DNA of 64,000 nt, taken from positions 4,032,001 to 4,096,000 of the forward strand of contig OY970296.1 of assembly GCA_963716175.1 (NCBI GenBank). The letters run 5' to 3'. A program made the position numbers and the translations under genes. The notes beneath the pieces are model-generated. The model was not told where the DNA came from. It saw nothing but the letters and a program-made list of their open reading frames with translations, and did not search any database. Source of the stretch: an uncultured Armatimonadetes bacterium. Lineage in GTDB: Bacteria > Armatimonadota > Hebobacteria > Hebobacterales > Hebobacteraceae. Of the stretch, positions 14,154-19,208 are shown piece after piece; positions within the stretch are counted from its first letter, which is position 1; each line of letters begins with the position of its first letter.

Positions 14154-14753
14154 TCAGGCTTGCCGCTTCAGTTCCTGCTCCAGCTTCTCGATATGCATCT
14201 TGGCCACGCTGTCGTCGGGAAAGCGCTTGAGCAGGGCCTGCCACTCGTCCAGCGCCTCCTCCTTGCGACCGGCCAGCTCCAGGGTCGCCGGCAGCATATG
14301 CTGCCAGGCCCGCGGTGCGTCGTGCTGCACTGATTTCCGGAACTGCTCCACCGCCTCGCCGTACTTGTGGCGGCGGTGGTAGAAGAGCCCGAACTGCTGG
14401 TACAGCTCCGGGCTATCGGGATTCTCCTCGATGCCGGCCTGGTACATGGCGATGGCCTCTCCGTCGCGGTTAAGGTTCGCCAGCACCCAGGCGACGTCCG
14501 TGTAAGCATCCACGAAGTGCCGATCCAGCTCGATGCTCTGGTAGCAGAGACGGATGCAGTCCTCCCACTCGCCGGCATGCCAGTGAGTATCTATGTCTGT
14601 GGCCAGCAGATCGAGCAGGAAATCCCGCGTCTCCGTGGTCCGGCGCTCGGCCTCGGCCGCGGGGATGGGCTGCATCCCCTGGTCACGCTGCGCCGCCCAT
14701 ACCACGGCGCCGCAAGTGAGCACCAGAGCCAACGCCACCAGGGCTCGCTTCAT
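14154..14753 (-). CDS. Secreted TPR-repeat protein
   Basis: Signal peptide followed by TPR-like helices. Confidence 0.75.
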   Translation of the reverse strand: MKRALVALALVLTCGAVVWAAQRDQGMQPIPAAEAERRTTETRDFLLDLLATDIDTHWHAGEWEDCIRLCYQSIELDRHFVDAYTDVAWVLANLNRDGEAIAMYQAGIEENPDSPELYQQFGLFYHRRHKYGEAVEQFRKSVQHDAPRAWQHMLPATLELAGRKEEALDEWQALLKRFPDDSVAKMHIEKLEQELKRQA

Positions 14754-14809
14754 GGCAGAGCTGCTCCTAGCAGAAAGTACTGCATTCTACCGGAATTCGC
14801 GGCCGTTGG

Positions 14810-14833
14810 GTAGGGCAGGCTCGCGGCCTGCCC
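14810..14833 (+). repeat. GTAG-type REP singlet
   Basis: GTAG-GGCAGGC-TCGCG-GCCTGCCC. Confidence 0.7.
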
Positions 14834-14843
14834 ACCTCCCCCG

Positions 14844-15422
14844 TCAACCCGGCGGCAAACGTCGTCGCATAGCCGGGATCAGCGCGGCCGCCGCCGCTGC
14901 CTTCACCGCGTCCACCACCACGAAGGGGAAGAGCGACTGCGCCAGCACGGCCAGCAGGCCCGCGCCAGAGCCTGTCATGGCCCGCCACACCGCGAACCAG
15001 GCGGCGCCGCAGGCGTGGATCACGATCACTCCGCACAAGCAGGCCAGAAGCACGCGCCACCCGGCCTGCGCCCTCGACCGGCCAGCGATCGAGCCGGCAA
15101 CCAGCGCGGCCAGCGGGAATCCCACCAAGTATCCGCCCGTCGGCCCCAGCAGCGCGGCCGGCCCGCCGCCGTGAGCGAAGATGGGCAGACCCGCGGCGCC
15201 GGCGGCCAGATACTCCACCTGGCTGACGAATCCCAGCCGCGCGCCCAACACCCCTCCGGCCAAGAGCACGCACAAGACCTGGCCCGTGATCGGCACCGGA
15301 GTGAACGGCACATGGAAGGAGAGGCGGGCGCCGACCGCAGTGAGGACCGCGAACAGGGTCGCGGCCGCCAGATCCACCGCCAGCCGCCGCGCTACTATGG
15401 CTCGCTCCCGCACCTGCGCCAT
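14844..15422 (-). CDS. bioY: Biotin ECF transporter S component BioY
   Basis: PFTPVPITGQ, GLPIFA and LLGPTGGYLVGF motifs. Confidence 0.92.
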   Translation of the reverse strand: MAQVRERAIVARRLAVDLAAATLFAVLTAVGARLSFHVPFTPVPITGQVLCVLLAGGVLGARLGFVSQVEYLAAGAAGLPIFAHGGGPAALLGPTGGYLVGFPLAALVAGSIAGRSRAQAGWRVLLACLCGVIVIHACGAAWFAVWRAMTGSGAGLLAVLAQSLFPFVVVDAVKAAAAAALIPAMRRRLPPG

Positions 15423-15549
15423 CACCGTCTCCTCGATGCCGCTATGGCTTCGGCGCGTAGGGACCAGCACCTCTTGGCGCCGACCCGGACAGGAGGTCCG
15501 GACTCGCGCGGGAACACAGGGAGGCAAGAGGGAGATGCAATAACTGATG

Positions 15550-16977
15550 TCAAGGGGTAATCGTGCCTCTGGCATAGCGAGTAAGTTGGAGATGTGGCGG
15601 CTTGTTTTTCCCAGCGCTGATGGTAGAATTACGCTGGGGAGCGCGAGACCTCGACGCCGCCTTGAGTGGTCGTCCCGATTGCATCGGGGCTTGACCCGCG
15701 GCATCTCCAGTGAGGCGTCGCTCCCCCTTCGGTGTCTGGGCCATCTCTTCTCCCCGAGCGATTCCGCGCAGGGCGATCTCTTCCGACCAAGGTTGATTGA
15801 AGGTGAGCACGGCCCAGACGATCTCAGCCATCTTTCGGGCGATGGCACCTCCGGCTGCTTTCTTGGATTTGCCTCGGGCTCGCAGGCGGGCGTAGAAGTG
15901 GCGGATCGCCGGGTTGTATTGGCGGGCGGCGGCCGAGGCCACCAGCAGAGTCATCTTCAGCATGCGGTTGCCCTTGCGGGTCATGCGGAAGCGCAGCTTG
16001 GTGTCTCCGCTCTCCCAGGCAATGGGATAGAGCCCACAGTAGCCCACGAAAGTCTCTTTGTGCGGGAAGCGACGGATGTCGGCTGTCTCGGCCAGGATGG
16101 AAGCCACCGAGACCGGGCCCAGGCCCGGCACCGAAGCCAGAACCGTATCTGGGAAGAGCCGCTCCAGCTCCTGGGCGACGGCTGCGTCCATGCCGTGAAG
16201 GAAACGATTCAGTTGCAGGATGCGGACGGCCGCGTCCTGGATGGAGAGACGCGCCATCATCGGCAGTTGGCGCGCGGGGGCAGCTTTCGCCAGGGCGATC
16301 AGTTTCCGGGCGAAGGCGGCTCCGACACGCTTGCCGTCGGAGTTGCGCAACTCACTCAGGCGAGCCTCACCCCGCCGGAGCAGCTCCTGGGGCGAGGGGC
16401 AGGCGGCCAGCGCCACCAGGGTGCGGACGCTGAACTTGGCACCCAGCGTTTCCCGATAGCCGGGGAAGTGAGTGCGCAGCAGCCGGTGGAGCCGATTCTT
16501 GAGCGAGGTGCGATCCTCCACGCAGCGGCGCCGGGTGCGAGTGGCATCCTGGAGCGCTTCGAATCCCTCGGGCATGGGGGCGCGGGGCTGGGGGCGGATC
16601 TTCGCCAGGAATCGGGCGATCAGCTCGGCATCCACCCGGTCGGTCTTGGTGTCCTTGAGCTCCAGCTTGCGGAACCACTTGACCTCGCGGGGATTGAGCA
16701 CGTGCACCTGGATCGTCCGACGCGTCTCTGCCCGCAGCGCCTTCGCCGCCACCCGATGATATTCGCCGGTGGACTCCACCGCCGCCATCACCTGGGTGCC
16801 GCGACCGCACGCGCGTGCGATCACCATCACGGCCTCGCCGAGCGCGGCCGCGCCGGTCGCGTCGTTGGGGAAGGACTGCACGCCGCCGATGGGCGCTCCG
16901 CTGCCATCGCAGAAGCCGACCTCCAGGGAGCGCGACGAGACATCGATGCCCACGCACAACAACCTCGCTTCCGCCAT
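15550..16977 (-). CDS. IS110-family recombinase/transposase
   Basis: VGIDVS, ESTGEYH and KTDRVDA (DEDD RuvC); SVPGLG and GYCGL.P...ESG (Tnp domain serine); GAGGAGG RBS before ATG 16977. Confidence 0.95.
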   Translation of the reverse strand: MAEARLLCVGIDVSSRSLEVGFCDGSGAPIGGVQSFPNDATGAAALGEAVMVIARACGRGTQVMAAVESTGEYHRVAAKALRAETRRTIQVHVLNPREVKWFRKLELKDTKTDRVDAELIARFLAKIRPQPRAPMPEGFEALQDATRTRRRCVEDRTSLKNRLHRLLRTHFPGYRETLGAKFSVRTLVALAACPSPQELLRRGEARLSELRNSDGKRVGAAFARKLIALAKAAPARQLPMMARLSIQDAAVRILQLNRFLHGMDAAVAQELERLFPDTVLASVPGLGPVSVASILAETADIRRFPHKETFVGYCGLYPIAWESGDTKLRFRMTRKGNRMLKMTLLVASAAARQYNPAIRHFYARLRARGKSKKAAGGAIARKMAEIVWAVLTFNQPWSEEIALRGIARGEEMAQTPKGERRLTGDAAGQAPMQSGRPLKAASRSRAPQRNSTISAGKNKPPHLQLTRYARGTITP

Positions 16978-17029
16978 ACACCACCTCCTCGGCAATGGAT
17001 CTGCCGCCAGCGCGGGAGCTCCTCGTCGC

Positions 17030-17222
17030 CTCCGGTCCCGCTTCGACTCCTGAATTGCGCGGTCGTGCCGCAGGTTGCAATCCAAGCTCCGGACCGGTCG
17101 CCGAGGGGTCATTCTCCTCTTCTCGGTCGCGCCGTAACTGAAATGAAGACCTCGCGCCCGACGCCCCGGCCCGGAGACTATAACCCACTCCATACTGGTG
17201 AAACCAGTACGGATATCCAAGT
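17030..17222 (-). ncRNA. Putative IS110 bridge RNA in the non-coding left end
   Basis: 5' hairpin at 17189-17213 plus two large stem-loops (17106-17186, 17032-17097) just downstream of TATAAT 17234-17229. Confidence 0.65.
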
Positions 17223-17244
17223 TGCAGCATTATAGGAGTCAGCA

Positions 17245-17787
17245 ATGGCCGAGCAGCTATTCGATGGAGCGACTGCCTTCGTGATCGTGGACATGCTGAA
17301 TGACTTCGTGCGCCCGGGCGCGCCGCTGCGGGTGGAGGGAGCGGAGGCCTTGATCCCCATCATTGCCCGCGGCCGGCAGGCCGCCAGGCAAGCAGGGGCC
17401 AAGGTGGTCTACCTCTGCGACGCTCACCGGCCGGACGATCCAGAGTTCCGCGCCTGGCCACCGCACGCGGTCCGCGGCAGCCAGGGCGCGCAGGTGGTGG
17501 AGGAGCTCGCTCCCGAGGCGGAAGATACCGTCATCCCCAAACGCCGCTTCTCCGGCTTCTTCGGCACTGATCTCGATCTCAACCTGCGGGAGCGGGGGCT
17601 GCGGCGGCTGCTGATCTGCGGCATCCTCACCGACATCTGCGTCTATCACACCGCGGCCGACGCCGCCCAATTGGCCTATGAGGTGCTGGTGGCGAAGAAC
17701 GCAGTGGCGGCGGCCACGGAGGAAGACCATCAGTTTGCGCTCAAGCAGATGGCGCGGCTGCTCAAGGTGCGGCTGGCAGAGCTTTAG
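17245..17787 (+). CDS. Isochorismatase/nicotinamidase-like cysteine hydrolase
   Basis: IVDMLNDF, WPPHAV, K.RFSGF and TDICV motifs. Confidence 0.92.
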   Translation: MAEQLFDGATAFVIVDMLNDFVRPGAPLRVEGAEALIPIIARGRQAARQAGAKVVYLCDAHRPDDPEFRAWPPHAVRGSQGAQVVEELAPEAEDTVIPKRRFSGFFGTDLDLNLRERGLRRLLICGILTDICVYHTAADAAQLAYEVLVAKNAVAAATEEDHQFALKQMARLLKVRLAEL

Positions 17788-18529
17788 CCACCCGCAAGGT
17801 GTGCCGCGGCCGCCTCAGTTGGGCCTGCATCTCGGACAGGGTCACGAAGCGGTAGCCGCGGCGGCGCAGGTCTTGGATGATCTGGGGCAGCGCGTCTATG
17901 GTCTGCTGCACCCCGTCGTGCATCAGGATAATCCCGCCATTGCTGACGCGAGCCAGCACGCGCCGCTCGATCCTACGCTCGCTGCGGCTCAGGTAGTCGG
18001 CGGAGTTGTCCGTCCACAGCACCGTGGTGAGCCCGAGTTCGCCGGCCGCGGTGACGCTCTCGCGATCGTAGCGCCCACCCGGGGGCCGGCAGTATTTCAT
18101 CCGCTCTCCGGTGATCGCCTGCACCGCCTGCTCGCATTCCTCCCACTCGGAGGTGACCCTCTCGCCCGTCAGCCGCGCGATGTTCACGTGGTGGAAGGTG
18201 TGGTTGCCGATCTCGTGTCCGGCCGCCCGCTCCTCCCGCACCAGCTCCGGGTGCTTCTGGGCCATCTTGCCCACCACGAAGAAAGTCGCCTTCACCTGGC
18301 AGCGATCTAACGCCGCCAGCAGCTTCGGGGTGAACTCGGGATGCGGGCCATCGTCGAAGGTGAGAGCGACGGCTTTGACCGCGGGATTGCCGCGGGTGAG
18401 CTTCAGGTAAGGACTGTGCTTGCGCGACCCGCCAGCCGCTGGGCCCGGGCCGGTCGTCTGCCCGGCCGCGCTCGCGGCGAGCAGACAGGCAGCCAACACG
18501 AACGGGAATGCAACACCGCCTCTGAGCAT
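17762..18529 (-). CDS. Polysaccharide deacetylase (CE4/NodB), secreted
   Basis: TFDDGP, GNHTFHH, RPPGG and ILMHD motifs; signal peptide. Confidence 0.92.
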   Translation of the reverse strand: MLRGGVAFPFVLAACLLAASAAGQTTGPGPAAGGSRKHSPYLKLTRGNPAVKAVALTFDDGPHPEFTPKLLAALDRCQVKATFFVVGKMAQKHPELVREERAAGHEIGNHTFHHVNIARLTGERVTSEWEECEQAVQAITGERMKYCRPPGGRYDRESVTAAGELGLTTVLWTDNSADYLSRSERRIERRVLARVSNGGIILMHDGVQQTIDALPQIIQDLRRRGYRFVTLSEMQAQLRRPRHTLRVAKALPAAP

Positions 18530-18695: not shown

Positions 18696-19208
18696 CTACC
18701 AGGCCAGTGGGGCAATCTCGCCCTGGAAAGGCCATTGCGATGCATCGGCCACCAGGCCGGCCCGGACCGGGTTCTCTCGGACATACTCCCATTTCTCACC
18801 ATATGATTCAGCGCTGCGTAGCAGATGATCGAAGAACTCGCGCTGCCAGGCGAACGTGGGCAGAGACCTTCGGATCTCGTGTGCGGTGCTTCGCTTCCAG
18901 TACCGGAGGTATGCTGAGAGGCCCTTTGGGCTCCCATCAGCGGGGGCGGCAAAGAAATGGACATGGTCCGGCATGACCACGAAACGACCTACCAGCCAAC
19001 CGTGATCGGAACCGGAATCACGCCAGGCGTCAACCAGTATGCCGGCGATAGTCGGGTTCGCGAGCACGCCCAAGCGCTCTCTGACGCAGACCGTCAGGAA
19101 GAACAACGGCGCGCCAGGCACGAAGATCCGATCCAGGCGGCGGAGGTGTTTGCGTCTCGGCAGCGCATCATTGGGCCGGAACCCGCTCTCCTGCTGGTGA
19201 TCGGGCAC
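18696..19208 (-). CDS. REP-associated tyrosine transposase (RAYT, Y1 HUH)
   Basis: FFLTVC, MPDHVH (HUH), WQREFFDHLLR and YVRENPVRAGL motifs; no tnpB; flanked by REPs. Confidence 0.92.
   Translation of the reverse strand: MPDHQQESGFRPNDALPRRKHLRRLDRIFVPGAPLFFLTVCVRERLGVLANPTIAGILVDAWRDSGSDHGWLVGRFVVMPDHVHFFAAPADGSPKGLSAYLRYWKRSTAHEIRRSLPTFAWQREFFDHLLRSAESYGEKWEYVRENPVRAGLVADASQWPFQGEIAPLAW

Follow-up and report, generated by a model that had tools for sequence, protein, structure and literature searches.

A probable bridge RNA in the left end of an IS110-family insertion sequence from an uncultured Armatimonadetes bacterium

What directs an insertion sequence to its target is a question raised by an IS110-family element of about 1.7 kb that has a BioY gene on one side and an isochorismatase-family gene on the other in the 64,000-nt stretch of DNA analysed here (the window). 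Since predicted bridge RNAs are reported for 85.7% of IS110-group elements by Durrant et al. 2024 (PMC11208160), a specialist would expect one in this element too, and the bridge RNAs predicted per ISfinder element in that study may already include relatives of the window clade. A sequence-only reading of the locus had indeed proposed a bridge RNA of IS621 architecture at the left end, with donor-matching sequences in the second loop and target guides left unassigned. Our comparative analysis indicates that the stretch very probably encodes the bridge RNA (seekRNA) of an active IS110-group insertion sequence. Each defining feature of the IS621 type that could be tested is present at the sequence level, the subterminal inverted repeat as a candidate only, and expression and RNA dependence are predicted.

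The element covers 1708 nt (17238..15531, minus strand), its limits being set by aligning four genomic copies that share this block; it starts with CTCC-TATAATG and ends with ATTGCAT-CTCC. When we searched the 4.56-Mb genome of the same organism with positions 15450..17300, five places were recovered: in four, the match extends over about 1.7 kb and is reported as 100% identical, and in the other it is 32 nt long. Compared with the window copy, the other three differ by one substitution, by two substitutions and by a 2-nt length difference, respectively; the copy L004 is the one that is 2 nt shorter. The two substitutions of copy L003 are G-to-A changes, one at element position 140 (the final base of CUCGGCG, the segment that follows the target loop) and one at position 381, within the recombinase gene. 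The flanks of the four copies are unrelated except for a short pattern, and the metagenome contigs break at 15531 and 17239, leading into the flanks of another copy. As in the IS621 type, the left end is long (261 nt), non-coding and situated upstream of the recombinase gene, while the right end is short (23 nt from the -35 box to the tip). We rejected an assignment to the IS1111 group, in which the RNA lies in a long right end and the subterminal repeats are long: here the element extends only 19 nt past the stop codon, and the guide structure is upstream in 36/36 aligned sequences.

The recombinase matches the Pfam families DEDD_Tnp_IS110 (5.3e-29) and Transposase_20 (2.1e-20). Among solved structures (PDB), the best match is to ISCro4/IS622-type bridge recombinases (PDB 9t56, E = 1.4e-17), followed by IS621 (5.7e-16), with residues 279-397 aligned; in the case of ISCro4, which was compared by protein only, residues 59-165 align weakly and nothing else does. 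The ESG motif of the window protein aligns opposite the ESG of the ISCro4 and IS621 chains, which in ISCro4 marks the serine loop. The catalytic S241 of IS621 presumably lies in this motif, as read from residue numbering and not from the alignment shown. Of 8000 candidates scored in a protein search, 172 matched at E <= 0.001, with identities of 90% and lower, and we aligned 57 of the best 60 listed matches, leaving out three fragments. In these 57 homologues E68, D113, D116 and S323 are invariant and D12 is nearly so; by analogy with IS621, we infer catalytic roles for all five. The last 71 residues of the protein contain 13 K/R against 4 D/E, and the tail blocks GERRLTGDAAG and AASRSRAP are kept down to about 65% overall identity. 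No relative with more than 30% identity was found in plasmid records. The earlier description of a divergent recombinase of about 475 aa with a basic C-terminal tail thus holds. In relatives of about 417 aa (L009, L010, L011, L038, L041, L045-L047, L051 and L053; L numbers denote loci), 217-411 nt separate the stop codon from the conserved right-end tip, and it is this space that is coding in the window clade, where the basic tail arises. Some relatives are decayed: L007 is without the left-end start and part of the donor loop, and stops shorten the recombinase frames of L018, L024 and L034 to 263, 90 and 164 aa.

With the recombinase alignment as query, 20 genomic and 35 metagenomic loci were retrieved; gene starts and stops were tabulated for 46/55, the nine omitted being matches without the N-terminal part of the gene. 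The left-end alignment comprises the window and 35 relatives (36 sequences), after dropping left ends whose start was not found or was cut by the contig, duplicates of L010 or L012, and two of doubtful length (L046, L054). Left ends could be aligned even at 36-50% protein identity, with two short variable blocks set within constant surroundings. Because many of the aligned relatives are closely related, the counts of paired cells given below overstate the number of independent events.

Folded as a single sequence, the left end has a z score of -1.83, with 7/200 shuffles folding equally well; as it barely beats its shuffles and is not significant by itself, the structure had to be tested by comparison. 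The covariance alignment of homologous left ends against their targets and donors, which had been suggested along with the original proposal, was run on the 36 sequences, and the loops covary with flanks and element ends. RNAalifold predicted 32 pairs, 22 of them with compensatory changes on both sides. With the 5′ hairpin added, 85.1% of cells are paired in this model as compared to 34-49% when the partners are slid, and an all-local variant reaches 91.8% (38-50% with slid partners); for either model, 0/500 shuffles reach any of the measures. The resulting structure has two internal loops within conserved stems, each with an inner hairpin, and its helices are 90-98% paired with compensatory changes. 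Conserved G-U and U-G pairs at the loop hairpins, e.g. U-G in 30 and 27 sequences, indicate that the RNA is read from the minus strand.

All nine strings quoted in the sequence-only reading lie on the minus strand where it had placed them: UCCGUACUGG (17213..17204), CCAGUAUGGA (17198..17189), GGGUUAU (17186..17180), AAGAGG (17121..17116), AUGACCC (17112..17106), CCGGUCC (17097..17091), AUUGCAACC (17081..17073), AGGAG (17051..17047) and GGACCGG (17038..17032). The three helices built from them fared differently. The 5′ hairpin formed by the first two strings is part of the minimum-energy fold and of every other fold that we ran, with z = -3.5 for the 5′ part alone. Many relatives have a hairpin of different sequence in the same place, and the WOR-3 elements and the L031 group have a weak one or none; scored by alignment column the hairpin is only 50.8% paired because the region aligns poorly, and it was judged per sequence instead. 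The stem CCGGUCC/GGACCGG is confirmed as the basal stem of the donor loop (93.4% and 90.1% of cells paired, both-side changes in 6/7 pairs). By contrast, GGGUUAU/AUGACCC had to be given up as the stem closing the first loop: it uses the same GACC as the stem GGUC/GACC, and only 64.8% of its cells pair (34 distinct sequences) versus 95.6% for GGUC/GACC, which has 10 and 6 compensatory cells and encloses an inner hairpin that is also 95.6% paired. Since the enforced energy of the originally proposed helices in the window sequence (-78.4 kcal/mol) beats that of the consensus fold (-66.6; unconstrained, -82.5), the energy model suggests that GGGUUAU/AUGACCC may nevertheless form in the free RNA of the window element.

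The outer fold is ambiguous, with two mutually exclusive pairs of helices, both conserved. In one arrangement, CGUCGGG pairs with CUCGGCG directly past the first loop (90.6%); in the other, CGUCGGG pairs with CCCGCG beyond the second loop (94.9%) and CUCG with CGAG (97.1%). If the four segments 17163..17157, 17105..17099, 17025..17021 and 17016..17011 are numbered 1 to 4, the possible helices are either 1/2 together with 3/4 or 1/4 together with 2/3; both alternatives are conserved and have some compensatory changes, mostly from one divergent group. Two further helices were rejected. CUCCGGGCC paired with GGUCCGGAG, a helix of the minimum-energy fold, shows few compensatory changes at 80-90% pairing and is a competitor of the donor-loop stem, which has better support; in a local 3′ hairpin, columns 269-273 pair with 279-283 in only 78.8% of cells. 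A scan of 14500..18500 with Rfam 15 at E up to 10 gave no match on the element; the lone match in this range was to an unrelated lncRNA model at 15223..15258 (E = 2.6), outside the element, and was discarded. The features of the element are collected in Table 1.

Table 1. Observed and predicted features of the IS110-family element and its right-hand neighbour (window coordinates)
Feature	Position	Strand	Basis
Whole IS110-family element	15531..17238	-	four genomic copies share the block; CTCC at each end
Target context: six-base spacer and ATG of the isochorismatase-family gene, directly adjoining the element	17239..17247	+	gene calls, start-codon survey
-10 box TATAAT at the left end, also within the right donor half	17229..17234	-	sequence, relatives
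5′ hairpin UCCGUACUGG / CCAGUAUGGA	17189..17213	-	minimum-energy folds; position conserved, sequence variable
Predicted target-binding loop: stem GGUC 17151..17148 / GACC 17110..17107; inner hairpin 17135..17123	17107..17151	-	95.6% paired
Left target guide (assigned) UUCAUUUCAG, with UU at the two core-binding positions; left-flank sense	17136..17147	-	alignment column
Predicted right target guide AGAGGAG, complementary to top strand CT-CC-TCT	17114..17120	-	flank covariation
Predicted target-loop handshake positions AA; the first pairs with donor position 7 (T)	17112..17113	-	24/27 loci
Predicted donor-binding loop: basal stem CCGGUCC/GGACCGG, second stem GCUU/AAGC, inner hairpin 17071..17059	17032..17097	-	covariation
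Predicted left donor guide GGAUUGCAACCU; sense of the right end ATTGCAT + CT, one extra base	17072..17083	-	right-end six-mer match
Predicted right donor guide AUU-C-AGGAG; AGGAG pairs with CTCCT	17047..17055	-	left-end complement match
Predicted donor-loop handshake positions UC, complementary to GA just left of the target CT core	17045..17046	-	26/37 sites
Recombinase gene, 475 aa: DEDD RuvC-like domain, Tnp domain, basic C-terminal tail	15550..16977	-	Pfam, PDB, homologue alignment
Right end: -35 box TTGACA 15553..15548 over the stop codon; left donor half ATTGCAT 15541..15535; putative CT core 15534..15533	15533..15553	-	

In IS621, each loop has a left guide that reads as the top strand does and a right guide that is complementary to the top strand (PMC11208160, PMC11208158). 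The second loop of the window RNA follows this rule with respect to the element's own ends, reading the right end in the same sense and the left end as the complement. Its AUUGCA equals the right-end six-mer in 27/27 loci, including those where the six-mer is ATTACA (three loci) or ATTGTT (two loci). The 7/9 match of AUUGCAACC to the donor had been counted correctly, and if one extra A is allowed in the RNA, the guide reads on through the CT core: the loop has AUUGCA(A)CCU where the right end has ATTGCAT-CT, and relatives with AAUCU in this guide match 9/9 (scored by eye). On the other side of the loop, AGGAG and left-end bases 1-5 are reverse complements of each other in 34/36 loci, with five compensated variants (AAGAG/CTCTT in L032; AGAAG/CTTCT in L016, L020 and L059; UGGAG/CTCCA in L056), and misses are confined to L015, which has a T at position 1, and L060, where the alignment is off by one column. 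Both donor matches of the sequence-only reading thus extend to the family, at 27/27 and 34/36 loci, beyond chance. The AUU that precedes AGGAG may also pair with the AAT of the -10 box, as suggested by one compensated case (L060).

As every copy is flanked by CTCC, the crossover cannot be located from one element alone. A difference between donor and target at position 3 or 4 of CTCC is found in L032, in L056 and in the WOR-3 elements, and in all of them the left junction has the form given by the donor guide and the right junction the form given by the target guide. These junction forms in three lineages point to an exchange at CT, as in IS621, and we infer that CT is the recombination core, the CC on the left belonging to the element and the CC on the right to the target. 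L015, a WOR-3 copy, has TTTC in place of CTTC at its left junction and retains CT at the right one; this may be the trace of an insertion at a site with a mismatched core.

In IS621, once strands have been exchanged, the two bases that follow each right guide pair with the opposite DNA at its positions 7 and 6 (the handshake), and pairing of these bases with the cognate DNA blocks the reaction (PMC11208160, PMC11208158). A corresponding pattern is found in the window family. The target-loop base fits donor position 7 in 24/27 loci (permuted mean 19.3; reached in 13/5000 permutations), and the donor-loop base fits target position 7 at 26/37 sites (permuted mean 14.3; 0/5000) and target position 6 at 12/37 (permuted mean 8.0; 189/5000). 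For the target-loop base and donor position 6 there was no signal, 6/27 being equal to the permuted mean of 6.0. Cognate pairing appears to be avoided, with 5/37 for the target loop with target position 7 and 0/27 for the donor loop with donor position 7. Among the four genomic copies, the donor-loop UC fits the site with both bases for the window copy and L002, and with one base for either of the remaining two.

The first loop relates to the insertion sites as the second does to the element ends, its left guide having the sense of the left target and its right guide being complementary to the right target, with the left guide out of register at the element's own four sites. For the right guide, we reverse-complemented the three variable bases before GGAG and compared them with positions 5-7 of the right junction: they agree at 71/87 positions over 29 insertion sites, as compared to a permuted mean of 38.6, with 0/10000 permutations reaching 71/87. 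No signal was detected at these 29 sites past position 7. The window copy is the worst case, with 0/3 variable positions matching in register, while the other three copies match at 3, 2 and 3 of 3; its right flank, CTCC-CTCTT, fits the guide only when one C is skipped. The AAGAGG that had been matched to CCTCTT does complement the flank of the window copy, but lies one base out of register with the family, in which AGAGGAG is the guide and CTCCTCT its counterpart.

For the left target guide, a sliding local match between guide block and left flank scored 205.5 over the full block (permuted mean 134.2; 0/2000) and 150.5 over the variable part only, columns 143-150 (permuted mean 109.1; 0/2000). 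With a fixed register, in which seven bases and the two core positions abut the hairpin, 103/231 positions match, versus 68.9 under permutation (0/3000); moving the flank one base away reduces this to 92 (permuted mean 72.9; 9/3000), and two bases away to 82 (permuted mean 65.3; 20/3000). The match is best in register at 12/33 sites, but at 0/7 scored sites of the window subclade, and at the element's own four insertions it never falls in the family register, the best shifts being 1, 3, 1 and 2. Within this subclade (L001-L004, L026, L028 and L030), the flank match is displaced away from the CT core by 1-4 bases relative to the other members of the family, and the core-binding bases of the guide are UU or GU, as opposed to CU elsewhere. 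We have assigned 17147..17136 as the left target guide by homology, its register in the window subclade being tentative. The original caution, by which target guides were left unassigned, is thus superseded by covariation of both guides with the flanks, and remains apt for this one register.

What kind of site do these guides select? At 21/35 loci, including all four copies in the genome itself, the reverse complement of the left flank carries a start codon 4-10 nt from the GGAG of the element, a codon being counted if it opens a frame of at least 60 codons or one that runs to the end of the available DNA. As judged from the flanking sequences, the preferred site of the window element and most of its relatives is the antisense of a Shine-Dalgarno sequence, a spacer and a start codon, so that the element is inserted close to the start of a gene, on its upstream side and facing away from it, and comes to lie between the gene's promoter and its ribosome-binding site. 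In the window, the GGAG ribosome-binding site of the isochorismatase-family gene is supplied by the first four bases of the element. Insertion at such sites should sever genes from their promoters, which is useful to bear in mind when annotating genomes of this kind. The 14/35 exceptions include the L031-L036 group. L031, L032, L033, L034 and L036 are not beside start codons and have similar left flanks (GGTGGGC...CG before CTCC), and the right flanks of L033 and L036 are nearly identical; given these shared flanks, the bridge RNA of this subclade seems to be aimed at a repeated host element.

Turning to expression, the right end carries TTGACA followed by 13 bases and then CTCC, so that joining it to the left end yields TTGACA-N17-TATAAT. 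TTGACA is present in 30/31 relatives with a located right end, with a spacer of 17 nt in 28 and 18 nt in three; TATAAT is present in 16/38 relatives, nearly all others having TATAnn. A promoter scan of the integrated element returned no sites, and no RNA run was listed as carrying the sequence. A promoter created by joining the ends would be in keeping with expression that depends on the circle, as described for IS621 and other IS110-family members (PMC11208160, PMC11208158, PMC11187229). A candidate subterminal inverted repeat, TTAT/ATAA, surrounds the 10-nt donor; it takes the form CTAT/ATAG in five loci of one clade and is discordant in four loci. By analogy with IS621, the element would excise as a circle, the junction of which is predicted to read right end, a single CT and then CCTATAAT; the promoter formed by the joined ends would transcribe the left end, and the left-end RNA would bind the DEDD/Tnp recombinase, with one loop holding the circle junction and the other the genomic site, whereupon S323 of the conserved ESG motif and the DEDD site would exchange strands at CT.

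Could the conserved left end do without a guide function altogether, as a leader or promoter region of the transposase mRNA that controls translation or stability, with the protein picking the target and the resemblance between ends and targets being due to chance or to shared CTCC? The region does lie directly upstream of the ribosome-binding site of the recombinase gene, and some resemblance is to be expected since donor and target have CTCC(T) in common. However, where the loops depart from the donor sequence they covary with each element's flanks, and covariation with the opposite partner is seen for the bases that follow the right guides; a leader predicts neither, and we give this explanation next to no credence. 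A narrower objection accepts the bridge RNA as genuine and holds that the left target guide is an artefact, in that UCAU resembles the flanks only via start codons (CAT) and that the right guide and handshake do the targeting alone. It draws on the near constancy of UUCAU in the family, on the occurrence of CAT 4-10 nt from the core in the same 21/35 loci and on the lack of any in-register match in the window subclade. Yet the variable part of the guide on its own scores above all 2000 permutations, and the L031-L036 group has in-register matches that are free of CAT (e.g. 12/13 in L034), which makes an artefact very improbable.

A different matter is whether the element has lost its mobility in this genome, the four copies being fossil remnants of an earlier burst; we regard this as unlikely. 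We looked for circle junctions, joints and empty sites in contigs of four metagenome DNA runs, possibly from the source sample, and found none, as a fossil would have it; contigs, however, cannot reveal rare circles, and the copies differ by no more than two substitutions (apart from the 2-nt length difference in L004). The reading that we prefer is therefore that of a bridge RNA with two guides in each loop, serving an element that is probably still active.

Comparison with described systems supports this preferred reading and shows where the window element departs from them. As in IS621 of Escherichia coli (Durrant et al. 2024, PMC11208160; Hiraizumi et al. 2024, PMC11208158), the RNA is located in the left end and has a target loop followed by a donor loop; each loop has a left guide with top-strand sense, an inner hairpin and a complementary right guide, the CT core lies within the guides, handshake positions follow the right guides, a sigma-70 promoter forms at the junction (here as sequence only) and the recombinase is a DEDD and serine composite. 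The IS621 architecture originally proposed for this RNA is thus substantiated by covarying stems, two loops, guides, handshake, CT core and the sequence of the junction promoter. Unlike IS621, the window protein has 475 aa, a match (E = 6e-16) mainly in the Tnp domain and a 71-aa basic tail; the natural right target guide has 7 nt, a common motif is found in both loop hairpins (GCGGCACGACCGC in that of the donor loop), there is one extra base in the left donor guide, the core-binding bases of the left target guide in the window subclade are UU and not CU, and the target is a ribosome-binding-site region. The seekRNA of ISEc21, of the IS110 type (Siddiquee et al. 2024, PMC11187229), is similar in that an upstream non-coding region gives rise to a short RNA matching both target strands, a circular intermediate creates a promoter (predicted here) and there is no target duplication; ISEc21 differs in targeting a conserved stretch inside IS3-family transposase genes, and is likened here by description, not by sequence.

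Insertion between ribosome-binding site and start codon has been described in older reports for the IS900/IS901/IS116 group of IS110 elements, and the window element would resemble this group in its oriented insertion next to a CTCC-like Shine-Dalgarno complement and CAT. A literature search of limited coverage found no confirmation of the IS900-type preference. Putting these threads together, one may picture a deep-branching clade, mostly from uncultured sediment bacteria, with a bridge RNA hard-wired to translation-initiation regions: the constant GGAG of the right guide would read the Shine-Dalgarno antisense, the constant UCAU of the left guide would read the start codon, and only about 5-8 bases between would vary; 1-3 unpaired DNA bases would be tolerated between the left-guide match and the CT core, and the mutually exclusive helices would switch the transcript between mRNA-leader and bridge forms. 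Taken as a whole, this picture is speculative and we hold it to be rather doubtful. It would, if true, add a flexible spacing between left guide and core, a mode of recognition not described for IS621. What goes beyond routine here is the targeting of ribosome-binding sites across a deep clade, the slack between left-guide match and core, and the competing conserved helices.

Bridge recombinases are under development as programmable tools for DNA insertion, inversion and excision. The window element offers a new orthologue that is well delimited and apparently recently active, from a lineage less than 30% identical to plasmid-borne IS110 transposases, with predicted guides, core, handshake positions and junction promoter mapped to the base, the left-guide register in the window subclade excepted. 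The rules of IS621, including the logic of the handshake, appear to hold at the evolutionary distance of the window clade.

Finally, a second mobile element may be present nearby in the window. The 170-aa gene at 18696..19208 (minus strand) gives a weak match to IS200-like Y1 transposases (E = 1.5e-4, under the Pfam cut-off) and has, to its left and right, copies of a 63-nt direct repeat as well as inverted arms of 17-23 nt (TGTAGGGCGGCCATGCG-type); 15 matches to the repeat unit occur in the genome. From its sequence, the segment 18578..19382 looks like a REP-associated tyrosine transposase together with its REP sequences.
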